A DNA stretch of 64,000 nucleotides from Megasphaera sp. (lineage in GTDB: Bacteria > Bacillota > Negativicutes > Veillonellales > Megasphaeraceae), in assembly GCA_050874545.1 (NCBI GenBank), contig JBNMKW010000004.1, positions 3,184 through 67,183 of the forward strand, written 5' to 3'. This document shows positions 7,070 through 41,690 of this stretch, in pieces; position 1 is the stretch's first letter; each line of letters begins with the position of its first letter. Made by a program: the position numbers and the translations under genes. Under the pieces are notes generated by a model. That model did no database searches and was not told where the DNA came from. It saw only the letters and a list, made by a program, of their open reading frames with translations.

Positions 7070-7124
7070 AAAACTGGGTCTGTCACTTCGAAGTAAAAAC
7101 GCTTCGTGTGACAGACCCTTTTTT
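7070..7124. terminator. Bidirectional terminator between convergent genes
   Basis: GGGTCTGTCAC...GTGACAGACCC stem followed by a T run. Confidence 0.8.
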
Positions 7125-7881
7125 ATAAGACCGCCTGTAATAATTCTTGTGTATACATGCTCTTCGGATGGCGCAATACATCTTCAGTCTTGCCCTCTTC
7201 CACAATGTTGCCTTCATGCATAATCAAAAGACGCTGGCAAAATTGTTGTGCCAATGCTATATTGTGGCAAATGAAAAGACACGCCATGCCCTGACTGGCA
7301 TTAAACCGTTGTAAAAGAGATACAATCCGCTGCTGCGTAATGGTATCCAGTGCACTAGTTACTTCATCACAAATCAAAAGAGCCGGCGATACCATCAATG
7401 CCCGAGCTATCGCGGCCCGCTGGCACTGGCCGCCGCTGACTTCATGCGGATATTTCTGCAGGATGTCAGCGTCCAAGCCGCATTGCTGTATCATCTGCTG
7501 TACACGTTGTTCCCGTGCCGCTTTTTTGATTTCTTGATTTCTCAGACTTTCAGCAATACTGTATCCCAAGGTATGACGCGGGTCAAATGACTCCCGCGGT
7601 GCTTGAAATACCATCTGTATCTGCTGATAAACCGACTGCAGTGCTTTTCCCTTCAGACACGTAATATTGTGATGCTGTACATACAGCTCCCCTTCTGTCA
7701 CATCTGTAAGACGGACTATGGCGTGCGCTAATGTACTTTTCCCAGCACCGGACCGGCCAACAACGCCTACGATTTCTCCTGGATACACACAACAAGTTAC
7801 ATCATTCAATATATGTTTGGGCCTATGATTCCCCTGTACTATAGTCTTAGTAATATGACGCAATTCGATAAGTGGCTGCAT
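7123..7881 (-). CDS. Peptide/nickel ABC transporter ATP-binding subunit (OppF/NikE-like)
   Basis: GRSGAGKS Walker A, VSGGQCQR signature, ICDEVTSALD Walker B. Confidence 0.9.
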   Translation of the reverse strand: MQPLIELRHITKTIVQGNHRPKHILNDVTCCVYPGEIVGVVGRSGAGKSTLAHAIVRLTDVTEGELYVQHHNITCLKGKALQSVYQQIQMVFQAPRESFDPRHTLGYSIAESLRNQEIKKAAREQRVQQMIQQCGLDADILQKYPHEVSGGQCQRAAIARALMVSPALLICDEVTSALDTITQQRIVSLLQRFNASQGMACLFICHNIALAQQFCQRLLIMHEGNIVEEGKTEDVLRHPKSMYTQELLQAVL

Positions 7882-7884
7882 ATA

Positions 7885-8664
7885 CTATTTCCTCCATGTT
7901 GGCATGGCTTGAATCAACGCTTTTGTATCGTCTTGACGCGGCTCTTCCAGTATCTGCCGTACCGTCCCTTGTTCTACACACTGTCCCTGATGCAGTACAA
8001 GCACGGTATCGGCCGCTTTGCGTATGACAACCATATCATGCGTAACTAATACAACTGCCGTACCGTTTTCCTGCTGCAAAGAACGCAGCGTCTGCAATAC
8101 CTCTTGCTGCGCGCAAACATCCAAAGCGCTGGTCGGTTCATCAGCCAGCAATACCTTCGGCTGCAGGAGCATTGCCAAAACAATCGCCGCCCGCTGCAGC
8201 ATACCGCCAGACAGCATAAAGGGATAGCTGTGCCACACGGCTTCACCGTCCGGCAACGCTACTTTTTCAAATAATGGCAATGTTTTCTGTTTTGTCTGTC
8301 TTTCTGTCCATCCTTGATGTACTGCCAGTGCTTCACTAATTTGGCTGCCAATCGTCCGCATCGGAGCAAATGTCATCGTGCCGTCTTGAAAAATCATCGC
8401 GATGGCTGTACCATACAAGGTCTGGCGTTCTTTTGCCGTTCTGTTCAACAAGGATTGTCCCAAGAGCCAAATCTCTCCCTGCGATACCCAGCCTGCTGGC
8501 CCCAACAGGTGCATAGCCCCTTTGAGGAGCGTACTCTTGCCGCTGCCGGATGCCCCAATAATACCGACTGTTTCTCCTGGATGCACGGCAAACGATACAT
8601 CGTTGACAGCGATGTGACTGCCATATTGAATCGATACGTGCCGATACTGCAGTACAGCCTCCAT
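7885..8664 (-). CDS. Peptide/nickel ABC transporter ATP-binding subunit (OppD/NikD-like)
   Basis: [26 protein letters not shown]. Confidence 0.9.
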   Translation of the reverse strand: MEAVLQYRHVSIQYGSHIAVNDVSFAVHPGETVGIIGASGSGKSTLLKGAMHLLGPAGWVSQGEIWLLGQSLLNRTAKERQTLYGTAIAMIFQDGTMTFAPMRTIGSQISEALAVHQGWTERQTKQKTLPLFEKVALPDGEAVWHSYPFMLSGGMLQRAAIVLAMLLQPKVLLADEPTSALDVCAQQEVLQTLRSLQQENGTAVVLVTHDMVVIRKAADTVLVLHQGQCVEQGTVRQILEEPRQDDTKALIQAMPTWRK

Positions 8665-8683
8665 GTCTGCTCCATCCTTTCTC

Positions 8684-10234
8684 TTACTGTTTATCTAAAT
8701 CTGCTGTAATTTCATAAAAATCACACGGATGCGCCTGCAGCCCTGTCACATTTGCTTTGGAAATCAAGCTCATTTGCAGATGCGAACAAAATACATAGGC
8801 ATAGTCATCCAACACGACCTGGCTCATCTGCACGGCTAACTGACTGCGCTGCTTGGCATCTGCCGTTTGTGCCATTTGCTGTGCCAGTTGTTCCAATGCA
8901 TCACTGTGATACCCGCCTGCATTAGCATCAGACTGATCTAAACAGCAATACGAAAAGAAATACGCCGGGTCGCCCGTAGGTGCCGTGACCATCGCACTGG
9001 CATATACATCCCACGCCGTTTTATCTTGGCGCAGTACATTATGGCTGGCTGTATTATTGATTTCTACATCCATACCTATCTTTTTCAGTGAAGCTTGGGC
9101 CGATTCTGCCAGCAGCGGCAATTCCTGCCGGCTTGGGTACGTCAGCCAGCGGATTTGCAGTTTTTGACCGTCTTTTTCCCGAATACCATCTCCATCACTG
9201 TCAACCCAGCCGGCTTGTTCCAGCACTTGTTTCGCTTCTTCAAGATCATAGGGTGCGTTTTGTACGGCTTTGTCGCCACAGTCCATCGTATCGGGGAACG
9301 GCCCCGCTGCCGGATACCCATGTCCCAGCAGCAGCGTCTTCACAAATCCTTCTTTATCTATCGCCATGGCTATGGCTTTACGCACTGCTTTATCCTGCAT
9401 TACCGGACTGGCAAAATTCATCCAAGCAAAAAAAGTCCGACTTGTAGGCGTACTGCTTATCGTATAGGCATCATTAGAAAATAATGCGCAGCTGGCATAA
9501 GGAAGTCCATAGGCAGCATCAATTTCTCCGCTCTGCAGCGCCATCGTCAACGTATCGCCGTCTGTAATGGTTCGTACGACAACCCGATCCAGTTTAGGCA
9601 TGCCGTTCCAATACGTTTCATTTTTTACTAGCTCCAACTCTTTCCCGGAAGTCAGCGCGACTGGCATATACGGCCCAGTTCCCGTAACCAATCCTTGTGG
9701 AGAAATCCCATCTTTCATATCAATAATGCAACTGTACGGATCAGCTAAATAATGCAACATAGCAGGCACCGGCACTGTCGTGTGAATAATGACATCTTGT
9801 CCGGACACGCCAATATCGGCAATATGCAAATCATTGGTCGCTCTCTTGTGAACGGAAACCAAATGTTCCAAGCATTCTTTAACTGCGCCGCTGTCCATGG
9901 GCCGATTGCTGGTAAACGTAATATTGTCCCGCAGTGTAATTTTCCAAGTCAGCGGGTCGAGCTGTACGGCCTGCTTAGCCAGCCAAGGCTCTAATTTCAT
10001 ATCATCAGTATAGCGAAATAAGGTTTCACCAACACCATAGCGCAGACACGCCCAGCCGCCGCAGTCATGATGGGGATTGATATCCGCTTCATTATTTTCC
10101 GCATTAAATGTCGTATCCCCCAAGATAAACGTTTTTCCGCTTTTTTCATGGGTTTCCTGATCATGGCCGCAGCCGCACAGCATGGTAAGCACTACCAACA
10201 GACAGACGATGCCCCACCGTAGTTGTTTTGTCAT
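8684..10234 (-). CDS. ABC substrate-binding lipoprotein, family 5 (NikA/CntA/OppA-like)
   Basis: Lipobox MLCG-C after MTKQLRW start (ATGA overlap with the permease stop); EPWLA, WKITLRDNITF, ALQSGEIDAA family-5 motifs. Confidence 0.88.
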   Translation of the reverse strand: MTKQLRWGIVCLLVVLTMLCGCGHDQETHEKSGKTFILGDTTFNAENNEADINPHHDCGGWACLRYGVGETLFRYTDDMKLEPWLAKQAVQLDPLTWKITLRDNITFTSNRPMDSGAVKECLEHLVSVHKRATNDLHIADIGVSGQDVIIHTTVPVPAMLHYLADPYSCIIDMKDGISPQGLVTGTGPYMPVALTSGKELELVKNETYWNGMPKLDRVVVRTITDGDTLTMALQSGEIDAAYGLPYASCALFSNDAYTISSTPTSRTFFAWMNFASPVMQDKAVRKAIAMAIDKEGFVKTLLLGHGYPAAGPFPDTMDCGDKAVQNAPYDLEEAKQVLEQAGWVDSDGDGIREKDGQKLQIRWLTYPSRQELPLLAESAQASLKKIGMDVEINNTASHNVLRQDKTAWDVYASAMVTAPTGDPAYFFSYCCLDQSDANAGGYHSDALEQLAQQMAQTADAKQRSQLAVQMSQVVLDDYAYVFCSHLQMSLISKANVTGLQAHPCDFYEITADLDKQ

Positions 10235-11088
10235 TTGCTCCCCTTCTTTCGTATATCCCAATAATCACGCAGTGAATCACCCAGCAAGTTAAAAACGGAT
10301 ACGGCCATAAAAATAGCCGCTCCCGGCGCAAACACAACCCATGGATAAGTCTGCAGCATGCTGCGACCCACATTCATCATACTGCCCCATTCTGCCAATG
10401 GGGGCTTGGCACCGAGTCCCAAAAAAGACAACGCAGCCAGTTCCATCATAACCGTTCCGATATCCAATGCCGCTGTTGTTATAATCGTACTGCTAATATT
10501 GGGCAGTATATGCCGTATCATCATTTGTTTCGGCGAAGTACCGGCTAACTGGGCCGCCGCCATAAAAGGCTGTTCTTTAAGCATCAGTGTCTGGCTGCGG
10601 GCTAATCTGGCATATTTAGGCCAGCCAATGACCAACAAAGCCAACATGGCTGTTTCTATGCCGCCATGCAAGACAGCGGTCACGGCCAATGCAAACACAA
10701 GAGCCGGAAACGCCAGGCACATATCGGCCAGCCGCATAACAAGTGCATCTGTCCTGCCGCCAAAATAAGCGCAGTGTGCGCCGATACTGGTTCCTATAGC
10801 AGCCTCTGCCATGACTACGATCCCCGCTGACAATACGCTGGCCTGCGTTCCCATCACGACACGGGACAACATATCCCGTCCATACCGGTCTGTTCCCAAG
10901 AGATGTGCCATGCTCGGCGGCTGCAGTGCTGCTGCATAATCCTGTCCATTCGGGTCATAGGGACATAAAAAAGAAGCAAAAACTGCAATTCCCACAACAA
11001 GAACTGCCAATGCTGCAAATCCATATACTTTCTCTTTCGTATAGTCGTGATACACCATTTTTTGGTGAATTGGCACAATATCTTTCAT
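10231..11088 (-). CDS. Peptide/nickel ABC permease (OppC/NikC-like)
   Basis: HLLGTDRYGRDMLSRV, EAA-loop-like PFMAAAQLAGTS, HILPN, LSFLGLG, EWGSM. Confidence 0.9.
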   Translation of the reverse strand: MKDIVPIHQKMVYHDYTKEKVYGFAALAVLVVGIAVFASFLCPYDPNGQDYAAALQPPSMAHLLGTDRYGRDMLSRVVMGTQASVLSAGIVVMAEAAIGTSIGAHCAYFGGRTDALVMRLADMCLAFPALVFALAVTAVLHGGIETAMLALLVIGWPKYARLARSQTLMLKEQPFMAAAQLAGTSPKQMMIRHILPNISSTIITTAALDIGTVMMELAALSFLGLGAKPPLAEWGSMMNVGRSMLQTYPWVVFAPGAAIFMAVSVFNLLGDSLRDYWDIRKKGSK

Positions 11089-12032
11089 CGTTTACTGCCT
11101 CCCCAGCGAATAGTCGGCACAAGCAGATGATAGGATATATCTGCTGCCAAATTGACAATCATATAGATAAAGGCCATCCAAAACACATATGCCTGAATGA
11201 TGGGATAATCCCGCATAGCAATCGCATCGACTGCCAATTTACCGATACCGTCCCACATAAAAATAGTTTCAACTACTGCCGTACCGCCAAGAAGGCTGCC
11301 CATGGACAAGGCCAGCAGCGTTACCAGCGTAACTGAAGACGCACGCAGGATACTGCGATACAGTGTATAGTGAAACGGAATGCCTCTGGCACCGGCACCA
11401 GCTACATAAGGTTTGCTCATTTCTTCCAACACAGCTGTCCGTATTTGCCGTATATATTTGACAGACATCACAATCGCCAACGTACAAGCAGGCAGCAGCA
11501 GTGCTTCTCCTGTCGTTCCGACGGCCATGACAGGTACCAAGGCATAGCGAACAGCAAACACGTACAACAATAGCAATGCCATAACAAAGCCGGGAATACT
11601 GCTGCCGCAAAAGCTGAATATCCGAATGCCGTAATCCCAAAGAGAATTCTTTTTGACAGCCGCTAAAACGCCTAAGGGAATAGAAATACAAAGCGTCATC
11701 ATCAAAGAGGCCGCCATGAGTTCTAACGTAGCTGGCAGCTTAGAAAAAAACAGTCCTGCTGCCGATTGACCGGATACATAACTTTGTCCCATATCTCCAT
11801 GCAGCAGACGGTTCAGCCATTCTATGTACTGTATATAAAATGGCTGGTCTAAGCCCAATCTAGCTCTTTCACTTTCTAAAACGCTTTGGGATACAGCGAT
11901 GCCCGTCTGTTCATATTTTTGCATCACCGCATCACTGCCGGCCAAATACATGCAGGCAAAAGACACCAGCGTAATACCAAGCAGCACAGGAATCAGCTGC
12001 AGCAGGCGGCGTATCATATATTGCCTCATCAT
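11085..12032 (-). CDS. Peptide/nickel ABC permease (OppB/NikB-like)
   Basis: YMIRRLLQLIPVLLGIT, LGLDQPFYIQY, VVETIFMWDGIG, RDYPIIQ; start moved to ATG overlapping the methyltransferase stop. Confidence 0.9.
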   Translation of the reverse strand: MMRQYMIRRLLQLIPVLLGITLVSFACMYLAGSDAVMQKYEQTGIAVSQSVLESERARLGLDQPFYIQYIEWLNRLLHGDMGQSYVSGQSAAGLFFSKLPATLELMAASLMMTLCISIPLGVLAAVKKNSLWDYGIRIFSFCGSSIPGFVMALLLLYVFAVRYALVPVMAVGTTGEALLLPACTLAIVMSVKYIRQIRTAVLEEMSKPYVAGAGARGIPFHYTLYRSILRASSVTLVTLLALSMGSLLGGTAVVETIFMWDGIGKLAVDAIAMRDYPIIQAYVFWMAFIYMIVNLAADISYHLLVPTIRWGGSKR

Positions 12033-12817
12033 CACTGGGCCGCCTTTACTGCCTGAATGCAAAACATCGGTGTCGATGCATTGTTGATGCGTTCTGTCCG
12101 CGTCCATACGGTTTGCCAGATGTTAGTATCTGCTGCCGCTTCCATGCCTAATGCATTCAGTACTTGAATATCCCATTGCGGCCGTTCTGCCAGTGACAGC
12201 GGTACTTGCTGGGCAATGGCTTCCATGGCTGGAATATCTGTCCCGTCGTTTTCATTCACCACACCGTTTTTCTGAATTTCTTTTCTATCTGCCAAATACC
12301 CCTGACGAGCCGTTTCGTCATATAAATACCGATACCAGTTGGCATCAAAATTCAGTAATACGCCGCCGGGCTTTAGCACCCGCTGCCATTCTCGATACGC
12401 TGTCTGCGGATGCGGCAGATTCCACGTCACATTCCGGGTCACAATGACCTCAAACGAATGGGCCGCAAAAGACAGGTTTTCAGCATTCATGCACTGAAAA
12501 ACAATAGATTTCTGCCATTTCCCAGCATTCCGTTTGGCTTCCTGCAACATGGATTCTGTATAATCCACAGCCGTAACGGCATATCCTTTTTCTGCTAAAA
12601 GAATCGCAAAAAAGCCAGGCCCTGTACCAATATCCAACACATGGATATCCTGCCGCCGTTTGTCAGGATAGCAGGCATCTATCCGCGTCGTCAATACGCG
12701 GCTCCATATATCATGCTGTCTTGTCCGCAGCTCCTCTTGATTGACTTCTGAATACGAGGGGGCGCGCTTTGTCCAATAGGTTCTGTTTTCTTCTTCAAAT
12801 GCCGTACATGTTTCCAT
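12032..12817 (-). CDS. Class I SAM-dependent methyltransferase (paralogue 2)
   Basis: VLDIGTGPGFFA motif I, VTAVD, RVLKPGGVLL; GAGGAG RBS before ATG 12817 (ORF extends to 12835). Confidence 0.88.
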   Translation of the reverse strand: METCTAFEEENRTYWTKRAPSYSEVNQEELRTRQHDIWSRVLTTRIDACYPDKRRQDIHVLDIGTGPGFFAILLAEKGYAVTAVDYTESMLQEAKRNAGKWQKSIVFQCMNAENLSFAAHSFEVIVTRNVTWNLPHPQTAYREWQRVLKPGGVLLNFDANWYRYLYDETARQGYLADRKEIQKNGVVNENDGTDIPAMEAIAQQVPLSLAERPQWDIQVLNALGMEAAADTNIWQTVWTRTERINNASTPMFCIQAVKAAQ

Positions 12818-12827
12818 CGTCTTCTCC

Positions 12828-13541
12828 TCATGCATACGCCGCTATCGTAAATATAGGCGTTGGATTATAAAATTCATCTACTGAAGCATAGATTCGCTGC
12901 CAAACAGTCGTGTCCACCTGTACATCACGAAATCCGGCCTGCTGCAGCAATTCTATATCCCACTGCGGCCGCTGATATGGCTGCTGCAATTCTTTTTTCA
13001 TCACTTCATACTGACGCATTACTTGAGGAGCAATTTGTTTATGCGCATGGTTTTCCGGCAGTACAGCCCCTTCGTTTTCATGGCAGTAATCGGCATCAAA
13101 ATTTAACAGCAAACCGCCTTTTTTCAGCAGACGGTGCCAAGATGCATATGCCATCCCCAGATGCGGCAGCGCCCACGTCAAATTACGGGAAATAAGTACG
13201 TCAAATGACTGTGCCGGAAATGCCGGATGTTCTGCATCCATAACATAAAACGATGCCGGTATCCCATACTGCGCCGCTTTTCTTTTTGCTTCTTCAATCA
13301 TATGCGCTGTCAAATCAATCCCCGTCACATCATGTCCTGCCATAGCCAGCAGCGTAGCAAAAAATCCGGTACCTGTACCCAAATCCAGAATCCGCAGCCG
13401 TCTCTGCATAGGTATATATTTTGCAAATTCAGCAAGCCACAACTGTCTTTTAGCACTTTGAAATTCCCGGCAGCGCTGTGCCGAAAAAGATTCAACGCGT
13501 TGTGACCAATACTGTACCATCTCTTGTTTTATCGTTTCCAT
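12828..13541 (-). CDS. Class I SAM-dependent methyltransferase (paralogue 1)
   Basis: ILDLGTGTGFFA motif I, VTGID, RLLKKGGLLL; AGGTGG RBS before ATG 13541. Confidence 0.88.
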   Translation of the reverse strand: METIKQEMVQYWSQRVESFSAQRCREFQSAKRQLWLAEFAKYIPMQRRLRILDLGTGTGFFATLLAMAGHDVTGIDLTAHMIEEAKRKAAQYGIPASFYVMDAEHPAFPAQSFDVLISRNLTWALPHLGMAYASWHRLLKKGGLLLNFDADYCHENEGAVLPENHAHKQIAPQVMRQYEVMKKELQQPYQRPQWDIELLQQAGFRDVQVDTTVWQRIYASVDEFYNPTPIFTIAAYA

Positions 13542-13687
13542 ATGTCCCACCTATACTATATCTTTTATATATATTATACAAAAACATCATACTAGTTTTA
13601 AGCCCCCCATGGGGATAGAACCTTAATACAGAAACCTTTCTCCAACGTTTTGTTTATATTAGGCTGTCTTGCCTTCCTATTGGGCAC

Positions 13688-13721
13688 AAAAAAACAGCGC
13701 ATACAAAATGTATGCGCTGTT
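13688..13721 (-). terminator. Terminator downstream of tRNA-Arg
   Basis: CAGCGCATAC-N5-GTATGCGCTG perfect stem then T7 on the minus strand. Confidence 0.85.
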
Positions 13722-13724
13722 ATG

Positions 13725-13801
13725 TGGTGACCCGGTAGGGATTCGAACCCTAGACCTACTGATTCGTAGTCAGTCACTCTATCCAGCTGAGCTACCGAGT
13801 C
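13725..13801 (-). tRNA. tRNA-Arg (anticodon ACG)
   Basis: GACTCGG/CCGGGTC acceptor stem, D arm AGCTCAGCTGGATAGAG, anticodon arm ACTGA-CTACGAA-TCAGT, T loop GGTTCGAATCC, encoded CCA; upstream TTGACA...TATAAT promoter. Confidence 0.97.
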
Positions 13802-13907
13802 ATGTCTCCTGACGACTTTTATATTATACAAAATGCACTGCGTTTTGTCAAGAATTTATTATAAAAAAACAGCCCTGACATCATATCAGAGCTGTCGAAA
13901 TACTATA

Positions 13908-14814: not shown

Positions 14815-15852
14815 TTATTTTATCATATCATGGGCAAGCATGTATTCTGCAATCTGCAGGGCATTCAAAGCGGCACCTTTGCGAATCTGGTCTCCAGATA
14901 CCCAAAGATTAATTGCTTTGGGGTTATACAAATCTTTGCGGATACGTCCTACATAGCAGTCATATTTTTCAGACGTATACAACGGCATTGGGTATTCCAT
15001 TTCTGCCAAATTATCCTGTACTTGAGCGCCTGGGAAGGCATCAATGGCTTTGCGTACTGCATCAACAGTCAGTTCATCTGCTGTTTCTACATAAATAGAT
15101 TCAGCATGGCTGCGGAATACAGGCACACGGACTGTCGTTGCCGTAATGGCAATGTTATCGTCATGAAGCATTTTATGTGTTTCATTGACCATTTTCATTT
15201 CTTCCTTACTGTAGTTATTGTCCAGGAATTTATCTATCTGCGGAATCAAATTAAAGGCAATGGGATAATGTTTCGGCAAGCTCTTGCTAGGCAAAATATG
15301 CGGAACCATTTCTTCCCCTTTAAGGTATGCCTGTGTTTCATCACGAAGTTCATCGATACCTTCTTTGCCGGCGCCGGAGACAGCCTGATACGTGCTGACA
15401 ATAATCTTTTTGATAGGAGAAAGGTCATGGATTGGTTTTAATGCCATCAACATGATAATCGTCGAGCAGTTTGGATTGGCAATAATGCCTTTATGCCATG
15501 CAATATCTTCCGGATTGACTTCCGGAACTACTAACGGTACATTGGGATCCATACGGAACGTGCTGGAATTATCAATAACGACACAACCCCGTTTCGCCGC
15601 TTCAGGGCCTAAGGTTTTGCTGACAGAACCGCCGGCAAATAAGCCGATGTCTACGCCATCGAATGATTCTGGTTTAGCTTCTTCGATAGTGTATTCTTCT
15701 CCATTGACAGTCATTTTTTTGCCTGCAGACCGTGAAGAGGCAAGCAGTTTTAATTTACTGTACGGAAATTTGCGTTCTTCAATCAATCGAATAAATTCTT
15801 GTCCTACGGCACCTGTGGCACCCAAAATAGCTACTACCGGTTCTTTTGTCAT
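14815..15852 (-). CDS. asd: Aspartate-semialdehyde dehydrogenase
   Basis: GATGAVGQ, VIDNSSTFRM, VVPEVN, IIANPNCST, DQIRKGAALNA. Confidence 0.96.
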   Translation of the reverse strand: MTKEPVVAILGATGAVGQEFIRLIEERKFPYSKLKLLASSRSAGKKMTVNGEEYTIEEAKPESFDGVDIGLFAGGSVSKTLGPEAAKRGCVVIDNSSTFRMDPNVPLVVPEVNPEDIAWHKGIIANPNCSTIIMLMALKPIHDLSPIKKIIVSTYQAVSGAGKEGIDELRDETQAYLKGEEMVPHILPSKSLPKHYPIAFNLIPQIDKFLDNNYSKEEMKMVNETHKMLHDDNIAITATTVRVPVFRSHAESIYVETADELTVDAVRKAIDAFPGAQVQDNLAEMEYPMPLYTSEKYDCYVGRIRKDLYNPKAINLWVSGDQIRKGAALNALQIAEYMLAHDMIK

Positions 15853-34178: not shown

Positions 34179-35585
34179 TTATTTCTTTTCAAAATCAATT
34201 ACTTTTCCCGGATTCAGAATCCAATTCGGGTCGATTGCTTTCTTAATGGTTTTCATCAATTCCAGTTCGACAGGATCGGTGTATTCTTCCATATATGCCA
34301 AGCGTTTGAGACCAATCCCATGTTCTCCCGAAAGGCGGCCGCCCAACCCGTATACGTATTTATATGCCGTAGCACGGAATTCTTTTAACTGTTTTACCCA
34401 TTCTTCATCGCTCATATCACATTTTAAAATTTGGAAATGCAAGTTGCCATCACCGGCATGAGCTAAACAAAATACTCGGAAATCGTATTTTTTGCTTTCT
34501 TTTACTAATGTTTGAATGCAGTCAGCAATCTTAGTTACTGGTACAACTAAATCTTCCGAAGTAGCTACTTTTGAAAAAACGCGCGTACTTTCCAAGCAGT
34601 TACGGCGAACTTTCCAAACGCGGTCATCGGCTTCTACTACATCCGTAGCCCCGCATTCTTCACAAATAGCTGCCAATTTTTCCATTTTATCATCTAATTC
34701 ACCTTCATTAAATGTTTCAATAGAAATAATATCATAACAGCCGTCTTCATAATGAGGCAAACGCAGTTCACTATAATCGCTGGCACTGCGAACAAAGTTA
34801 TTATCCATAAATTCAACCGATGTAGGATTTAAACCTGCTTTGACTAATTTAGGTACCAATGCCGTTGCCTTTGCCAAATCCGTAAAGACAGCCAATACAT
34901 CCAAACGGTACGGGCAAAGCGGCACTAATTTCAACGTCGCTTTAGTAATAATCCCTAAGGTACCTTCTGAACCAATAATCAGCTGATCCAAACAAAAGCC
35001 TGTAGAACATTTTTTCAGCGTAGCTCCCAAATGAGCAATTTTACCAGTCGGCAGTACGACTTCAATAGAATATACTTGGTGGCGTGTCGTGCCATATCGA
35101 ACAGCTTTATTGCCGCCGGCATTAGTTGCTAAATTGCCGCCAATCAAGCAGCTGTCTGAACTGCACGGGTCACCGGCGTACATAAGGCCTTTGGAATTTG
35201 CCAAATTTTGAATGTCAATCGTACGAACACCAGCTTCAACAGTCATATACATACCGTCTTCATTCAATTCCAAAATTTTATTCATTCGTTCCATCAATAC
35301 TACAATGCCTTCATATGCAGGAACGGCTCCACAGCTGACACTCGTACCGGCACTGCGCGGTGTAACCGGTACATGATATTGATTGGCTAATTTCATGATC
35401 GCTGCTACTTCTTCTGTACAGCCCGGCAACACGACTACTTCCGGTGTATGCCAAAATGAAGGAGCCAAACTTTCATCGGATTTATATACATCCAATACAT
35501 CGGCATCGGTTTTTACATTTTTATCACCAACAATATCTTTTAATGCTTGTATTACTTCATCTGTAACTTTATTATAGGGTTTCAT
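34179..35585 (-). CDS. FAD-linked D-2-hydroxyacid (D-lactate) dehydrogenase, GlcD-like
   Basis: GGNLATNAGG, IGSEGTLGIIT, HAGDGNLH, SGEHGIG, LNPGKV; GAGGAG RBS. Confidence 0.88.
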   Translation of the reverse strand: MKPYNKVTDEVIQALKDIVGDKNVKTDADVLDVYKSDESLAPSFWHTPEVVVLPGCTEEVAAIMKLANQYHVPVTPRSAGTSVSCGAVPAYEGIVVLMERMNKILELNEDGMYMTVEAGVRTIDIQNLANSKGLMYAGDPCSSDSCLIGGNLATNAGGNKAVRYGTTRHQVYSIEVVLPTGKIAHLGATLKKCSTGFCLDQLIIGSEGTLGIITKATLKLVPLCPYRLDVLAVFTDLAKATALVPKLVKAGLNPTSVEFMDNNFVRSASDYSELRLPHYEDGCYDIISIETFNEGELDDKMEKLAAICEECGATDVVEADDRVWKVRRNCLESTRVFSKVATSEDLVVPVTKIADCIQTLVKESKKYDFRVFCLAHAGDGNLHFQILKCDMSDEEWVKQLKEFRATAYKYVYGLGGRLSGEHGIGLKRLAYMEEYTDPVELELMKTIKKAIDPNWILNPGKVIDFEKK

Positions 35586-35739
35586 TATACTTCTCCTCAC
35601 TAATTCGCAACTTAAGTTTCTTCTAGTGCAACACTAGGTTGCAACATAACTATTATAGTACAAATTAAGCGATTTGTCTTCCCACCTTTTTTTATTTTTT
35701 TGCATATGTAGCTTATATTTTTTATATTTTTGCATACAG

Positions 35740-35788
35740 AAAAAAGGTAGAACGTATAAACAAAGAAATTATACGTTTTACCTTTTTT
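35740..35788 (-). terminator. Terminator after larA
   Basis: AAAAAGGTAGAACGTATAA...TTATACGTTTTACCTTTTT. Confidence 0.8.
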
Positions 35789-35816
35789 CGTATTTCTTTT
35801 AATTATTGAAATAAAT

Positions 35817-37115
35817 TTATTTTAATACAGGGAATGTCGCCGCAGCATGACCCATAATCGTAACTGTATAGTCCTTCTTGCCTTCGCTGGCTAATTCAGC
35901 CTGTGCCATGTTCCAAGCCTCTTCCAATGTCGCTGCCGGAATTTGGCCGCTCTGCCGAATAATGTCAAAATTTTCCGGACGCGTAACGATGTATACCTGT
36001 TTCATCGAATTGATAATACAATGTGTCTTAAAAGCAACAAAGGCCGGAATGGAAAAGTCTGCACGCAAGTCTTTTTCAAAGGCACTCATATCACTGCGGA
36101 AAAACCAATCTGTAAAAATAGCCGGTTCCTTGATGTCCGGGCAATCCAGTGTAAAAATCATAATACCGCCGGGTTTAGTCGCAAATACTGCGTTCATATG
36201 GGCTTTCGTACTTTGGTACAGATTCATGTCCTTAGGATAGCCACCGGCAGAACCAATCGTTACGTCCGCTTGTTTTTGAATGGTCACGCTGGCAATACGC
36301 AGCAAATCTTCGCAGCCTTTTTTCCATGCTTCATACCAATGACCGCCCACTACTTCGTATAAATCTCCGTCAGCAGTAAACACGGTGTTAACTAAAAATG
36401 CTGGATTGAGCAGTGCTGCGGCCTGACGCATATCATCATGCAGCGGATTATGTTCCAATAAACTCGTTTCACACAGGGGGTTGCAGCCGCCGCCAATTTC
36501 ATCAGTCAACGCCAAGGCATGATTGCGCATAATCGTTTCATAACTGGAAATTCCAGGAAGCACGCTTTTGCGGCCGCCACCAAATCCAGCCATCGGGTGG
36601 AATGATACGGCACCCGTTAAAATGACTTTGTCTGCTTCTACAGCGCGTCTGTCCAAGAAAATATCATTTCCATGTGTTGTCGTGCCGACTTTGACTAAAT
36701 TGGCTTCGTCACGGCAGTCATGATTGACAATGCGAAGACGCTGAACCATTTCTTTGCCGCAAACGACGACATTTTCTTCCGGTGTATGTGCCCGGTGCGT
36801 CCCCTGCGCAGTAATGACTGTAATTTGTTCATCTTTTACGCCTATGGCATTGAGTTCTTCTACAATAACAGGCAGCATTTGTGCTGTATGAACGATGCGT
36901 GTAATATCACTGACAACAATGGCCACCGTATCCGTCGCTTGGATGACTTCCCGAAGCGGCGCACTGCCAATAGGATGACGCAGGGCCTGACGTACGGCTG
37001 CCGCTTCATCTTTTACGGTTTCTACTTGATTACCGTGTAAATCATATAATATATGCGATTCATCCAACGATACTGTTTGGATACCTTTTCCACAAGGGAG
37101 AGAAAATGTTTTCAT
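35817..37115 (-). CDS. larA: Nickel-pincer-dependent alpha-hydroxyacid racemase, LarA family
   Basis: SDITR, GTHR, NHD, AGFGGGRKSVLPG, NH, GGYPKDMNLYQSTKA; start at ATG 37115 with AGGAG RBS. Confidence 0.85.
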   Translation of the reverse strand: MKTFSLPCGKGIQTVSLDESHILYDLHGNQVETVKDEAAAVRQALRHPIGSAPLREVIQATDTVAIVVSDITRIVHTAQMLPVIVEELNAIGVKDEQITVITAQGTHRAHTPEENVVVCGKEMVQRLRIVNHDCRDEANLVKVGTTTHGNDIFLDRRAVEADKVILTGAVSFHPMAGFGGGRKSVLPGISSYETIMRNHALALTDEIGGGCNPLCETSLLEHNPLHDDMRQAAALLNPAFLVNTVFTADGDLYEVVGGHWYEAWKKGCEDLLRIASVTIQKQADVTIGSAGGYPKDMNLYQSTKAHMNAVFATKPGGIMIFTLDCPDIKEPAIFTDWFFRSDMSAFEKDLRADFSIPAFVAFKTHCIINSMKQVYIVTRPENFDIIRQSGQIPAATLEEAWNMAQAELASEGKKDYTVTIMGHAAATFPVLK

Positions 37116-37153
37116 TTGGTTAGCTCCTAACTGCATTACATATCAAAAATTTT

Positions 37154-37891
37154 TTAGTCACTCATATGGTGGTCAGGAAATAATTCATGGATTTTACGCG
37201 CCGATTCTTCGTCCTGCTGTATTCCCTTCAATAACGTTTTTTCTGAATTTTCCATATGTTTTTTAGCCACTTTGCGCGCCATAGCACTATTATGCTGCGC
37301 AATATTTTCTACCATCTGGCGATGTTCTTCCCAGGTGGCAGCCAATCGTCCCGGATAATGCATAGAAATAGAACGGAAACGCAGCATTTGTTCTCGCAAA
37401 TTATGAAGAATATCTACTAAGCGTTGATTACGGCTGGCATGATACAATATATCATGAAAGCGAACATCGGCATCAACGATTTTATCAAACTTATCGTTAG
37501 CCATGTACTCATTAATTTCTACTAAAATGCGTTCCAAACATTCTAATTCATCCGGTGTAATTCGTTCTGCTGCTAAACCCGCAGCCAATTCCTCCAAGGC
37601 ACCTCGGATTTCAAAAACTTGAGAAATATCTTTCAAGGATATATCTGCCACATACGTGCCGCGCCGCGGCACCATGACTACAAATCCTTCCAATTCTAAT
37701 TTACGAATAGCTTCGCGTATCGGCGTACGGCTCACGCCTAATTCATCTGCCAGCTGGATTTCCATAAGTCGTTCACCCGGTTTTAATACGCCGTCTTTAA
37801 TGGCCTGCCGCAAAGCCTCACTAACGACATCCCGCAGCGGTTTATAGGCATCCAGCTGAATAGGTTCTAATTTATATTTCTTATTTTTCAT
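37154..37891 (-). CDS. GntR/FadR-family regulator (FCD domain)
   Basis: LKPGERLMEIQLADELGVSRTPIREAIRKLE; ADVRFHDILYHASRN. Confidence 0.92.
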   Translation of the reverse strand: MKNKKYKLEPIQLDAYKPLRDVVSEALRQAIKDGVLKPGERLMEIQLADELGVSRTPIREAIRKLELEGFVVMVPRRGTYVADISLKDISQVFEIRGALEELAAGLAAERITPDELECLERILVEINEYMANDKFDKIVDADVRFHDILYHASRNQRLVDILHNLREQMLRFRSISMHYPGRLAATWEEHRQMVENIAQHNSAMARKVAKKHMENSEKTLLKGIQQDEESARKIHELFPDHHMSD

Positions 37892-37898
37892 ACGTTCT

Positions 37899-38756
37899 TC
37901 ATTCACTCCTGACAAGTCTGCTTATATATACATCCATGGGCTGGGTACTTGCCTCATCCCGTATTTTATCATACAACTGCTGCCCTTTTTCCTGCGGCGG
38001 CACAAGGGCAAAAACCGTCGGTCCGCTGCCGGCCATCAAGGGACGAAGTCCATGCGCCTGCAAAAGATTGCGGCATGCTTCAATGAGCGGTACATCCGGA
38101 ATGACTAATTCTTCAAATGTATTTCCCATCGCATCTGTCAGCATGGTAAAATCATGCTGTCGCACAGCCTGCACCACTTTTTCTACTGCCACCGGCGTAA
38201 TCTGTTCGGACTGATCAAATAACCCGTATGCTTTACCCGTGTAGACAGGCACACGGGGATGAACAATCACTACTTCCCATGCAGGCAGGGACGGCAGTAC
38301 TTCTAATTGGTCTCCAATGCCTTGGCCGCGCCTGCTGCCGCCGCAAATACAAAAGGGAACATCAGCCCCCAGCGATGCACCGATTTGGCACAGCATTTCT
38401 TGTGATAAACCCAGCTGCCATAAGCGATTTAAGCCTCTCAATACAGCTGCACAGTCTGTACTGCCGCCTGCTAATCCGGCAGCAATAGGAATATGTTTTT
38501 CTATATGCACATGAGCACATCGCCCCTGACTGTACGGCTGCAGTGCTTGATAGGCTTTATAGGCCAAATTAGACTCATCACACGCAAGTCCCGGTACGGA
38601 ACAGGTCAACAGCCAATCGTCTGCTTCTTCCAGCTGGACAATATCATGCAGTGCAATGGATTGAAATACCGTATCGATATCATGATACCCATCATCTCGT
38701 TTTCCTGTTATCGCCAATGCCAGGTTAATTTTCCCGTAGCCAATTTCCTCTATCAC
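37899..38756 (-). CDS. ispE: 4-(cytidine 5'-diphospho)-2-C-methyl-D-erythritol kinase
   Basis: KINLAL, GYHDIDTVFQ, KHIPIAAGLAGGSTD, GADVPF, MAGSGPTVF; GTG start. Confidence 0.95.
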   Translation of the reverse strand: MIEEIGYGKINLALAITGKRDDGYHDIDTVFQSIALHDIVQLEEADDWLLTCSVPGLACDESNLAYKAYQALQPYSQGRCAHVHIEKHIPIAAGLAGGSTDCAAVLRGLNRLWQLGLSQEMLCQIGASLGADVPFCICGGSRRGQGIGDQLEVLPSLPAWEVVIVHPRVPVYTGKAYGLFDQSEQITPVAVEKVVQAVRQHDFTMLTDAMGNTFEELVIPDVPLIEACRNLLQAHGLRPLMAGSGPTVFALVPPQEKGQQLYDKIRDEASTQPMDVYISRLVRSE

Positions 38757-38968
38757 ACTGCATCCCCATCCTAAATACAAAATATAGGTTTCTATATTGA
38801 ATTAAATTTTGCTTATGTTATAATGATGAAACAACTAGGATACTGCGCATCGTTTTCTCTGCTTAGTATCCTGTCTCAATGCACATAGATACCATTGTGC
38901 CAATTTAAATTATACCGTTTTTTCTTTTATTTTACAATTGTTTCTGTATACTGTAGGAGCAAAGAAAT

Positions 38969-39907
38969 ATGAAATCAAATCAAAAAACATCGTTAAAGAA
39001 ATTCTCCATTCCGTATCTCGCCTCGTTTATCGGCGGTCTGATTGTCGCGATTGGCATGAATGCCTTTTTTGTTCCCCATCATCTGCTGAGCAGCGGCATC
39101 GGCGGTATTGCTATTATGGCTTATTTTGCAACTGGATTTCCTATTGGTATTGGCATTTTTGTATTGAATATTCCTATTATGATCGCCTGCTATAAATACA
39201 TGGGACGGCAGTACACCATTCTAAGCATTGTCGGTACCGTACTATTTTCAGCACTAGTCGATGGAACCGCCTTTATGTCGGACTGGAACCTCATCAAAGA
39301 CCCTATGATTTCCTGTATCACCGGCGGCTTAGTTTCTGGGTTGGGTTTTGGCATCCTATATAAATACAACGGCAACAGCGGCGGCCTTGATGTCGTCGGT
39401 GCTATCGTCAAGAAATATTATTCTCTGGAAATGGGAAATGTTGTCATGGCTATCAATTCGATTATCCTAGCAGCTGCTGCTTATATGTTTTCTCTGGAAA
39501 TGGCCGTGTTGACGTTTGTCGGTTCCTATATTACCGCTTTTATTACTAACAAAGTAGTTATCGGCTTGAAACAGCGTAAATCCGTATTTATTATTTCCAA
39601 CCGCGCAGATGACATTGCCCATTTAATCATGCGGTATGTCGGACACGGCGCTACGTACTTTTATGGTCAAGGAGCCTATACGATGCAGGACAAACGCATT
39701 ATTTACGCTGCTATTAAACTAACTGAAATCGCCAAAGTCAAAGAAATCGTCAATAAGATTGACCCAGGAGCTTTCATGATTATCAGTGATGCTTCAGAAG
39801 TTGTCGGCCGCGGTTTTACCGCCCCATCAGTCAAATACCACACTTATCCCGGCGATTCCTTAGCTATGCCCCATACACGCAAACATATGCCGCCGGAAAT
39901 TAAATAA
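38969..39907 (+). CDS. YitT family membrane protein
   Basis: SSGIGG, NIPIM, SGGLDVV, GATYFYGQGAYT, IDPGAFM. Confidence 0.88.
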   Translation: MKSNQKTSLKKFSIPYLASFIGGLIVAIGMNAFFVPHHLLSSGIGGIAIMAYFATGFPIGIGIFVLNIPIMIACYKYMGRQYTILSIVGTVLFSALVDGTAFMSDWNLIKDPMISCITGGLVSGLGFGILYKYNGNSGGLDVVGAIVKKYYSLEMGNVVMAINSIILAAAAYMFSLEMAVLTFVGSYITAFITNKVVIGLKQRKSVFIISNRADDIAHLIMRYVGHGATYFYGQGAYTMQDKRIIYAAIKLTEIAKVKEIVNKIDPGAFMIISDASEVVGRGFTAPSVKYHTYPGDSLAMPHTRKHMPPEIK

Positions 39908-39924
39908 AAAAATTCGTTACTCAA

Positions 39925-40053
39925 ACAACAGGGCTGTCGCACAAAGCGACTAGCCCTGTTTTATTATTTCTTTTAAGTTTGTTCTTTTAATAATGCATAC
40001 GTTCTAAAAAAAATCCCCTGTATCAGCTTGATTTCAAACCAATACAGGGGGTA
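39925..40053. terminator. Two terminator hairpins between convergent yitT and lactate permease genes
   Basis: AACAGGGCT-GTCGC...GCGAC-TAGCCCTGTT plus T run; CCCCTGTAT...ATACAGGGG. Confidence 0.75.
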
Positions 40054-40073
40054 TCAATTACAATATTATTATC

Positions 40074-41690
40074 TTAGTGAAGGAAAATGCTTTGACCAAC
40101 GAAGCACACGATACCAGCTACTACAATGAAGAGAATGAAGTAACCAGCTACATTTTTCATAATCGTGCTAGGAAGAATGCTGTCACGCAATTCTTTGGCT
40201 TTGCCTTCATCTACTTTATTGGCACTGATATATGCTTCCAATGCCGGAGCAACAGCACCTACGCCGATAGCAATACTCTGCGGGGAGAACATTTTGCCAA
40301 TGCCTGCACCGCCGGAGTTAGTAGCTGCCAGCCACAAGGACAAGAGGCCGCTGTCGTACGAAGTCATACCCGTTGCTGCCATCTGTGTTGCAGCTGCAGT
40401 TTGCAGCGGCCCAAAGAGGACGTTCGCATTGGTACCAGAACCAGTAATAAATGCGCCCAACGCACCAACAAGCGGTGCAAATGCCGGGTAGAAGGAACCC
40501 GTTGCAGCAACAAGAGCGTTTGCAATCGTAGCTGTCATGCCGCTGTACGTCATCAATTTAGCGGTAACAACAACAGCGATGATAGTAATATACGTAAATT
40601 TCAAACCTTTAAATGTGTTTCCTAATACGCCAAGCATTTCACCTAAGCCTGTCTTTTGGACAGCACCGCCAATAAATGCGGAGAGGAAAATCATAATACC
40701 CGGTGTTGCAATCCAAACAAATGTGTACGGTTTTGCACCTTCACCCATGTAAATAGGAATAGATGTCTTGATGGAAGCAAGCGGTGCGTTAATAGCCGGG
40801 AGCAGTTTGGATGTAACGATTAACAGTACGAAAATCAAGATAAACGGCATCATAGCTGTAATGGCTTCACCCATTGGAACTTGACGAACTTCTGCATCCA
40901 CTTTGTATTCCGGATCGTTAGCAGGGAATACTTTAGCACATACAGCAATCGCACCCATAATGATGATGGACGGAACGATAACAGACAGTTCCGGACCCAT
41001 TGCCATGTTGATACCCAATTCCGGTAAAGACAATGCCAAGCCGGAAATTAACGTCGGAATGAATACGCCTTTCAGTGCTTTCGGACCGCCGCCCATAATC
41101 ATGACAACGAAGAACGGGCTGACTGTGTTCAAAATGAACAACTGAATGGCAATGAACTGACCTAAATGTACAGAATCCAAACCAGTCAAGGAAGCCAATG
41201 TTGTCGTCGGAATGGCAATAGAACCAAATGTCGTCGGAACGGAGTTAGCAACCAAGCAAGCCAAGATAGATTTCAGCGGGTGGAATCCTAGGCCAACCAT
41301 CATAGCTGCCGGAATAGCAACGGCAGTACCAAAACCAGCCATGCCTTCCATGAATGCGCCGAAGCCCCAAGCTAAGAGCAAGGACAAGATACGCATATCT
41401 GAGCTTACAGATGTCAAAATCGTTTTAATGGTTTCCATTGCTTTCGTATGTACTACCAAATTATACGTGAAAATAGCCGATGTGATAACCAGTAAAATTG
41501 GCCAAATTGCCAAGGCAACGCCTTCTAATGCCCCGGAGAGCATAATCCCCGATTCTTTACCGAACGGAACAACAGCAACGATAAATGAAATAATAGCTGC
41601 AATCAAGCAGGCTTTCCAAGCCGGTACTTTTAAAATAGCTAAGCCAACAATGAGCCACAGAAGCGGCAATACTGCAAGTAATACGTCCAT
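40074..41690 (-). CDS. lctP: L-lactate permease (LctP family)
   Basis: GFGAFMEGMAGFGTAVAI, ANSVPTTFGSI, GAFITGSGTNANVLFG, GKMFSPQSIA. Confidence 0.92.
   Translation of the reverse strand: MDVLLAVLPLLWLIVGLAILKVPAWKACLIAAIISFIVAVVPFGKESGIMLSGALEGVALAIWPILLVITSAIFTYNLVVHTKAMETIKTILTSVSSDMRILSLLLAWGFGAFMEGMAGFGTAVAIPAAMMVGLGFHPLKSILACLVANSVPTTFGSIAIPTTTLASLTGLDSVHLGQFIAIQLFILNTVSPFFVVMIMGGGPKALKGVFIPTLISGLALSLPELGINMAMGPELSVIVPSIIIMGAIAVCAKVFPANDPEYKVDAEVRQVPMGEAITAMMPFILIFVLLIVTSKLLPAINAPLASIKTSIPIYMGEGAKPYTFVWIATPGIMIFLSAFIGGAVQKTGLGEMLGVLGNTFKGLKFTYITIIAVVVTAKLMTYSGMTATIANALVAATGSFYPAFAPLVGALGAFITGSGTNANVLFGPLQTAAATQMAATGMTSYDSGLLSLWLAATNSGGAGIGKMFSPQSIAIGVGAVAPALEAYISANKVDEGKAKELRDSILPSTIMKNVAGYFILFIVVAGIVCFVGQSIFLH

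Follow-up and report, generated by a model that had tools for sequence, protein, structure and literature searches.

The closest described relatives of the locus examined here are nickel importers of the NikABCDE type. NikABCDE of Escherichia coli and NikA (Opp5A) with NikBCDE (Opp2) of Staphylococcus aureus are five-component systems with short ATPases that lack the OppD/F C-terminal extension, and in E. coli the regulatory gene nikR is the last of the operon. In the staphylopine system of S. aureus, CntKLM-CntABCDF-CntE, genes for enzymes that use S-adenosylmethionine (SAM) stand directly upstream of an Opp/Nik-type importer, and control is exerted through Zur/Fur, not through a CsoR-family site. 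Siderophore uptake operons also combine a binding-protein-dependent chelate importer with co-transcribed soluble enzymes, such as the Fes esterase and siderophore-interacting reductases, which are presumed to free the metal once it has been imported. Here we describe a seven-gene cassette of Megasphaera sp. in which two paralogous SAM-dependent methyltransferases, MT1 and MT2, are encoded ahead of an importer of this kind. It lies in a 64,000-nt stretch of contig JBNMKW010000004.1 (assembly GCA_050874545.1, positions 3,184 to 67,183 of the forward strand), referred to below as the window, and it is probably a nickel- or cobalt-regulated uptake operon of which the methyltransferases are an integral part.

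The cassette shares with the E. coli and S. aureus nickel systems the five importer components and the short ATPases without the extension, and a related nik operon in Veillonella likewise ends in its regulator gene. Unlike NikABCDE, its importer genes run in the order B-C-A-D-E, its proteins miss the equivalog cutoffs, the NikA residues Arg137 and His416 are absent, and the predicted control site is a CsoR-family operator, not one for NikR. It also differs from both nickel systems in its two co-transcribed methyltransferases. As in the Cnt system, genes for SAM-using enzymes lie directly upstream of the importer, and the top models for the ATPases were CntF and CntD (238 and 235 bits, sub-cutoff). 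Unlike Cnt, the cassette has no CntL-type nicotianamine-synthase domain, opine dehydrogenase, racemase or exporter, and its enzymes are ordinary Methyltransf_11/25 proteins; a Pfam search for Cnt-like biosynthesis domains (CntL, CntM, exporter) found none in the seven genes or in their conserved neighbours.

Regulators linked to related cassettes resemble InrS of Synechocystis PCC 6803 in their C-H-C ligands and His-bearing N-terminal extension, and the operator found here, like other sites of the family, is a G/C-tract pseudopalindrome. They differ from InrS in belonging to Firmicutes, in their much longer His-rich tail and in having no efflux target that we could find, and they are known here from sequence. 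The likeness to siderophore uptake operons is a functional analogy only: the cassette enzymes use SAM-dependent methylation and belong to a different protein family. The importer is of a known kind, and the methyltransferase pair, the operator and the uptake-only regulon are new in that we found no published description of them. A preliminary description of the window, made from the sequence with no database searches, had named no characterised pathway with such a layout, and we found none published either.

Organization of the cassette and its coupling to the importer

Seven consecutive genes on the minus strand (13541..7123) encode, in order, MT1, MT2, a NikB-like permease, a NikC-like permease, a substrate-binding lipoprotein, a NikD-like ATPase and a NikE-like ATPase, as judged from the list of open reading frames (ORFs) and from Pfam and NCBIfam scans. 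Neighbouring genes overlap or are separated by gaps of at most 19 nt, and the gene beyond the NikE-like ATPase is convergent. The single strand, the order and the tight packing had all been given in the preliminary description and were borne out by the ORF list and the domain scans. MT1 (13541..12828) is a class I SAM-dependent methyltransferase of 237 aa, the ATG of which at 13541 follows an AGGTGG Shine-Dalgarno sequence, the formal ORF opening with a GTG at 13550; its paralogue MT2 (12835..12032), also of class I, has 267 aa. The NikB-like permease (12032..11085; BPD_transp_1 and BPD_transp_1_N) belongs to an ORF that opens at 12107, with a likely start at 12032/12029 that abuts the MT2 stop, and it is followed by the NikC-like permease (11088..10231; BPD_transp_1 and OppC_N). 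The family-5 substrate-binding lipoprotein, of the NikA/Opp5A type (10234/10261..8684; SBP_bac_5, lipobox LCGC), probably starts at the ATG at 10234. The two ABC_tran ATPases, NikD-like (8664..7885) and NikE-like (7881..7123), complete the cassette.

The same seven genes in the same order were found among entirely different neighbours at three loci whose MT1 relatives are 61-65% identical (L001, L003 and L005), and again, with differing flanks, in L024 from a scan of species-representative genomes and in L090. The preliminary description had proposed a neighbourhood analysis of the methyltransferase family as a check. Nik-type permease or binding-protein genes were present at 14/28 loci of this family and at 0/52 loci of other class I methyltransferases from the same scan (Fisher p = 2.7e-8). 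Because the cassette recurs with different flanks and shows this association, the arrangement is not one of chance, and the data support a genuine coupling of the methyltransferases to this importer clade. Variants were also seen: MT1 alone accompanied the transporter in L008, L009 and L022, and L020 and L021 had divergent arrangements. More distant relatives of the methyltransferases lay inside Nik/Opp-type operons, some of them between transporter genes, in Methanocaldococcus (L025), Bacillota (L029), Methanosarcinales (L030) and Clostridiaceae (L032). No exporter or other biosynthetic gene was found in the cassette at any locus compared (L001, L003, L005 and a sister species).

Several loci carried insertions or truncations. 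In L005 (13486-14805) and L006 (16602-17401) a cassette that is otherwise intact has an IS110-family transposase between its NikC and binding-protein genes, with Tn916-like remnants (integrase, Xis, MobA) a few kb upstream; the NikD gene of L006 is, in addition, broken into two ORFs. On a very common Veillonella contig (L087, 281-1913) the divergently placed methyltransferase gene is cut to 136 aa beside a Transposase_mut gene; the nik operon and its regulator gene stay intact despite this. In Veillonella genomes in which MT1 has no transporter (L016, 7386-9524), MT1 is directly preceded by a gene for a 712-aa protein of the Prismane/CO-dehydrogenase family and followed by a sulfite/nitrite-reductase-like gene. 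A general link to CO dehydrogenase was considered and dropped; the 728-aa neighbour in L003 had no match in the Pfam library used.

A conserved operator at the cassette promoter

The most informative feature of the region, absent from the preliminary description, is an operator. It surfaced when the upstream regions of homologous cassettes were compared, as a shared 17-bp G/C-tract palindrome, ATCCCCNNNGGGGGCTT, which in the window lies at 13616..13600, with exactly 21 nt between it and the -10 box. This predicted operator, ATCCCCATGGGGGGCTT (13600..13616, minus strand), is a CsoR/RcnR-type pseudopalindrome with its centre near -42, so that it overlaps the -35 position, and it is the sole exact copy within the window. 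A promoter scan placed the -10 hexamer at 13578..13573, 21 nt past the operator. The promoter (13573..13601, minus strand) has a weak -35 (TTAAAA), a 17-nt spacer and an extended -10, TGTATAAT; the overlap with the operator leaves just TT of a -35 hexamer. Operators of the CsoR family are G-tract pseudopalindromes, and the window operator resembles the CsoR type 2 consensus, ATATACCCCTNAGGGGTATAT (PMC3902906).

With up to one mismatch allowed, 1.1 Mb of related loci contained 13 copies of the operator, where 0.18 would be expected. All 13 were in sense orientation upstream of methyltransferase/nik operons, and the distance to a -10-like hexamer was 21 nt in 12 of them and 20 nt in the other. 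In the sister species the spacer has diverged and the operator and -10 are intact, a phylogenetic footprint, and the operator-promoter module is conserved across Megasphaera, Veillonella, Lachnospiraceae and Oscillospiraceae. Control by a riboswitch or leader RNA was rejected on the basis of Rfam scans: the tRNA was the sole match in the window, and seven related loci gave none. In L009 the operator occurs in a second exact copy (15784-15800), shortly past the stop codon of NikE; a TATTCT hexamer follows at 21 nt, and a 308-aa ORF lies beyond it.

The operator defines a regulon of uptake genes

When metagenomes were scanned for ATCCCCNNGGGGGGCTT, 83 sites were found on the 80 contigs fetched. 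We treated as promoter-type the 28 sites that had a -10 hexamer (at least 5/6 matches) exactly 21 nt downstream. Twenty-three of these preceded uptake-type genes, a DUF364 protein or the regulator gene, and for the remaining five less than 1.5 kb of downstream sequence was present. Nine stood before MT1/MT2 and Nik-type genes, seven before importers with FecCD and Peripla_BP_2 domains, three before energy-coupling factor (ECF) importers of the CbiM-PDGLE/CbiQ/CbiO kind (with four more at 20-nt spacing), three before the gene for an InrS-like regulator itself, and one before a DUF364/DUF4213 'heavy-metal chelation' protein. No efflux gene was found behind any of the 28. Sites that had no -10 at the 21-nt spacing were mostly unrelated; genes of the above kinds lay downstream of 9/48, and five of these nine preceded CbiM genes, four of them at 20-nt spacing.

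Importers that depend on a binding protein typically carry metal-ligand complexes. Within the regulon, methyltransferases accompany both importer types of this sort and the ECF type has none, no methyltransferase being encoded within 6 kb of the ECF operons. Characterised relatives of the ECF importers take up the free ion (PMC3945884). A class I methyltransferase was visible in three of the seven FecCD-type operons and shares only SAM motif I with MT1; in these operons a methyltransferase and an importer of the chelate type have been brought together independently, for a second time. Operons of this siderophore/B12 type that are driven by the operator-promoter module and have their own class I methyltransferase were seen in L127 (8327-14213), L096 and L159. 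In L163, the FecCD-type importer is followed by an FmdE-domain protein with the Cys/His-rich motif HHGHECPG, which lies 2973-3353 nt beyond the operator.

A CsoR-family protein is encoded at the very end of the nikBC-A-DE operon in two Veillonella loci, L021 and L087, where the operator lies at the operon promoter, and in L001 a CsoR-family gene is two genes away from the cassette. These linked regulators have a C-H-C ligand set and a His-rich N-terminal tail of about 40-90 residues, and the linked regulator is nearer to InrS (5fmn, 7e-20) than to copper CsoRs (about 1e-10). The homologous gene of Lachnospiraceae is surrounded by housekeeping genes, which fits the existence of cassettes with no adjoining regulator. 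In L132, L147 and L169 the InrS-like gene is preceded by the identical module of operator, 21 nt and -10, and in L168 it follows cbiO in an operon; these arrangements predict that it is autoregulated, with the same geometry as its targets.

MT1 and MT2 are distinct class I methyltransferases

Sequence identity between MT1 and MT2 is 34% (E = 2e-51), and the four shared motifs listed in the preliminary description (YWxxR, LDxGTGxGFFAxLLA, RNxTWxLPH and LKxGGxLLNFDA) were all found, as was the paralogy it had claimed. Pfam assigned MT1 to Methyltransf_25/11 (5e-21) and MT2 to Methyltransf_11 (1.4e-23). Both have the features of class I SAM-dependent methyltransferases: motif I (ILDLGTGTG in MT1, VLDIGTGPG in MT2), an acidic residue after strand 2 (GIDLT and AVDYT, respectively) and a Rossmann-like fold. 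An AlphaFold2 model of MT1 had a Rossmann-type fold at a predicted local distance difference test (pLDDT) score of 93, and Foldseek matched it to class I enzymes with probability 1.0. These matches were generic (TM about 0.6), and the structure search was set aside as a clue to the substrate. None of the named families UbiE/MenG, BioC, ArsM, CpaM, DVU_1556, Tam and TehB reached its NCBIfam cutoff, the best scores being 60.9 against 155 for DVU_1556 and 61 against 180 for CpaM. The relatives of MT1 fall into more than 1175 clusters at E <= 1e-10, all of them generically named or with no name. MT1 and MT2 have no signal peptide or membrane segment in their sequences and are for this reason taken to be cytoplasmic.

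In a maximum-likelihood tree the MT2 clade (100/99) was separate from the MT1 superclade (96/88), and an archaeal-type methyltransferase clade (100/100) stood apart from both. MT1 and MT2 branched alike, the window with L003, L001 with L024 and L005, and L012 with L013, from which we conclude that the duplication is old and that the pair travels together. All of the MT1 superclade retains His167 (MT1 numbering), which MT2 lacks, so the two enzymes probably catalyse different reactions. A Cys/His metal site in MT1 (DYC...HAH) was considered, the motif being seemingly invariant among close homologues; it was rejected because, of these residues, His167 alone is retained across the wider clade, in which Cys153 and His165 vary. 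Closely similar MT1-MT2 pairs were found in L012 (9941-11647, Acutalibacteraceae) and in L013 (26-1701), a metagenome-assembled genome of Coriobacteriaceae (Actinomycetota). Their MT1s pair in the tree, as do their MT2s, on short terminal branches of 0.02-0.23, a likeness that suggests recent horizontal transfer or a binning error.

The importer resembles nickel systems

The importer has the composition of a peptide/nickel (PepT, TC 3.A.1.5) system, with a family-5 binding protein, two OppB/OppC-type permeases and two ATPases. The binding lipoprotein matched SBP_bac_5 at 3.4e-70, and its lipobox is present. Nickel models were the top models for the transporter proteins. The permeases fell just short of the cutoffs, at 328 bits against 350 for Opp2B (NikB-like) and 294.5 against 300 for Opp2C (NikC-like). 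The binding lipoprotein (Opp5A_nikA, 348 against 600), the NikD-like ATPase (NikD, 234 against 319) and the NikE-like ATPase (NikE, 222 against 333) were well under theirs, and for the NikD-like ATPase the CntF, CntD and NikD models all scored about 235 bits, sub-cutoff. The nearest solved binding proteins were 3t66 and S. aureus NikA (4ofj). Close homologues of the lipoprotein share the clade motifs NPH..GWAC.RYG, DPYGCIIDM and GHYH, which include conserved His and Cys residues.

Genomic context

A tRNA-Arg (ACG) gene lies upstream on the same strand (13725..13801; ARAGORN, with an Rfam tRNA score of 65.6 bits) and has its own consensus promoter at 13851..13823. An intrinsic terminator with a 13-bp stem and a T-run (13693..13721, minus strand) separates its transcript from the cassette, so the tRNA gene is upstream context and not a member of the operon. 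That the cassette begins after this terminator, as the preliminary description had it, is correct, the cassette starting about 150 nt further on. The 14-nt extended -10 segment TTTTGTATAATATA (minus strand) is the same in the cassette promoter (13570-13583) and in the tRNA-Arg promoter (13820-13833).

The preliminary description had also raised the tRNA 3' end as an insertion site, while noting no integrase and no duplicated attachment site. Both of these absences hold: the window ORFs include no integrase, and a search for a direct repeat of the tRNA 3' end found none. The insertion itself is not supported. A sister-species contig (MT1 79% identical) keeps the order of the window, with dapA, the cassette, a 182-aa gene, a DEAD helicase, TetR and a pyridoxal phosphate lyase, and the G+C content of the cassette (46-51%) is only 3-6 points higher than that of its flanks (43-47%). 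We therefore rejected integration at the tRNA.

Elsewhere in the window is a lactate-utilisation cluster (34179-41690) with a flavin adenine dinucleotide-linked oxidase (34179-35600), the lactate racemase LarA (35817-37136) and an L-lactate permease (40074-41690). LarA, which the preliminary description had already noticed, is encoded at 37136..35817 with Lar_N and LarA_C domains, and two unannotated ORFs (37154-38780) lie between it and the permease. Its presence in a lactate cluster indicates a demand for the nickel-pincer cofactor.

Discussion

The metal-related role suggested in the preliminary description is strengthened by the InrS-like operator and its regulon. The best overall explanation, and the one towards which we lean, is that the cassette is an uptake operon for a nickel (or cobalt) chelate and that the methyltransferases process the imported ligand. 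It would be a single operon for the binding-protein-dependent uptake of nickel, or possibly cobalt, as a metal-ligand complex, with one promoter the -35 region of which is occupied by a 17-bp operator for an InrS-like sensor of the CsoR/RcnR family. This sensor would allow expression under metal scarcity and shut it off once metal suffices, acting either as an apo-activator at about -42, as has been reported for InrS at the nik operon of cyanobacteria, or as a repressor that depends on metal. The lipoprotein would capture the metal complex, and the NikB/NikC-like and NikD/NikE-like proteins would move it into the cytoplasm. There MT1 and MT2, made from the same transcript, would each carry out a different methylation of the organic ligand imported together with the metal. 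Such modification would lessen chelation, release the metal to enzymes such as LarA and stop the ligand from rebinding it, a role akin to that of the esterases and reductases of siderophore uptake operons. We offer metal release by ligand methylation as a tentative mechanism.

Since all operator targets that we found are uptake systems or the regulator gene, the sensor would have to switch the operon off at sufficient metal. A site at -42 beside a weak -35 fits activation by the apo-protein. The extended -10, together with the same architecture at the regulator gene, would be compatible with repression, and we infer the direction of control, as we do the identity of the metal. The preliminary description proposed that the methyltransferases make or modify a transported ligand or metal chelator, or detoxify an imported compound, and the arguments that bear on this choice are indirect. 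The occurrence of methyltransferases with chelate-type importers, and not with ECF importers, favours processing of an imported ligand over chelator synthesis or protein modification. This distribution is circumstantial as a pointer to ligand processing, and the substrate and purpose of the methylations are likewise what we infer.

A number of observations weigh against this explanation. All of the Nik and Cnt equivalog models scored under the curated NCBIfam cutoffs, as did all of the CbiM matches, so that the regulon could serve nickel, cobalt or both, cobalt being as likely as nickel. In E. coli NikA, Arg137 and His416 are the residues that we take to contact Ni-(His)2. In an alignment to 2noo, in which the loops are uncertain, the lipoprotein has Pro and Gln at these positions, and Val and Thr in place of Trp398 and Tyr402. 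The cargo is therefore nickel-like by homology only. The Foldseek and PDB matches of MT1 were generic small-molecule or peptide methyltransferases (PMT, LahSB, RebM) that do not point to a substrate, and MT1 or the MT1-MT2 pair has no adjoining importer in L007, L012/L013, L014/L016/L017 and L023. No homologue of a CsoR-family regulator is encoded within the window. Four of six promoters have an extended -10 and might work with no activator, and known CsoR-family proteins mostly derepress on metal binding, which would imply induction by metal excess. RNA data amount to a small number of short metatranscriptome contigs and to runs of unknown type, neither of which delimits the transcript.

Of the other explanations, the one that survives best, although we consider it unlikely, is that MT1 and MT2 turn a common metabolite into a small secreted chelator, by methyl or possibly aminocarboxypropyl transfer on the model of staphylopine and Cnt, and that the Nik-type system re-imports the metal complex. 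The layout is that of cntKLM-cntABCDF, with SAM-using enzymes first and then an Opp/Nik-type importer in one metal-regulated operon; two paralogues could act in sequence, and in L012/L013 the pair occurs with no adjoining transporter. No exporter, dehydrogenase, racemase or ligase, however, accompanies the cassette at any locus, an absence that argues against a biosynthetic role, and there is no nicotianamine-synthase or opine-dehydrogenase domain. Methylation, moreover, normally lowers chelating power and does not create it, and many loci, such as L008, L009 and L022, have MT1 only.

We see little likelihood that the operon answers metal excess, its operator being a classical CsoR/RcnR repressor site, its expression induced by surplus nickel, cobalt or copper, and the methyltransferases and transporter mitigating toxicity, for example through import or modification of a protective ligand. 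Nearly all characterised CsoR-family members leave DNA on binding their effector (PMC7055735; PMC11672702). An overlap with the -35 is seen here and, with identical architecture, at the gene for the regulator (L132, L147, L169), as is typical of negative autoregulation, and several promoters have an extended -10. Against this, the other members of the regulon are importers of the CbiM/Q/O, FecCD and Nik types, with no efflux pump among the 28 sites, and to induce three kinds of nickel/cobalt importer at metal excess would be self-defeating. InrS, moreover, is a precedent for positive control of nik genes, being the one CsoR-family member reported to promote nickel uptake genes (PMC7055735; PMC11672702).

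Equally improbable, in our estimate, is that the methyltransferases act on a macromolecule, be it a protein of the transporter, a chaperone for nickel or a maturing nickel enzyme. MT1 stands alone in some genomes (L007, L023 and Veillonella L014/L016/L017), and LahSB, the closest solved relative by sequence, methylates a peptide C-terminus, but the fold and the closest families are those of small-molecule methyltransferases, and an unrelated methyltransferase occurs with FecCD-type importers and none with ECF importers, which ties methylation to import of the chelate type and not to a protein target common to these systems.

That this is not a metal system at all, but an importer of peptides, opines or other nutrients with methyltransferases that detoxify or assimilate the imported compound and a palindrome for an unrelated regulator, is very improbable: family-5 systems do carry many non-metal cargoes, the nickel equivalog models are all sub-cutoff and the metal-complex residues of E. 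coli NikA are not conserved, but CbiM/Q/O genes have the same operator, as does a His-rich InrS-like regulator gene that in Veillonella lies in the same operon, and the top transporter matches are consistently nickel models and NikA structures.

We know of no described metal-release step for nickel/cobalt importers, even for the E. coli and S. aureus systems. Ligand processing by an enzyme pair tied to a binding-protein-dependent importer would be a concrete and testable candidate for such a step, and the pairing of methyltransferase and importer extends to methanogen and other archaeal relatives. Ligand methylation may be a general, so far unrecognised cytoplasmic step in the assimilation of chelate-bound nickel or cobalt by anaerobes, one for which at least two unrelated methyltransferase families were recruited independently, to Nik-type importers in one case and to FecCD-type importers in the other, with the uptake regulon of Firmicutes under a new CsoR-family branch of reversed logic; we advance this broader view as speculation. 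Through the operator, an uptake regulon governed by a CsoR-family sensor can be recognised in Firmicutes that abound in the gut; we found no description of this regulon, and it would be only the second case of the CsoR family controlling import. If true, an uptake-dedicated CsoR branch, acting as an apo-activator at -42 or with metal as co-repressor, reverses the usual logic of the family. The supply of nickel affects the activity of lactate racemase, CO dehydrogenase and hydrogenase, and through them lactate and gas turnover in gut and rumen communities.

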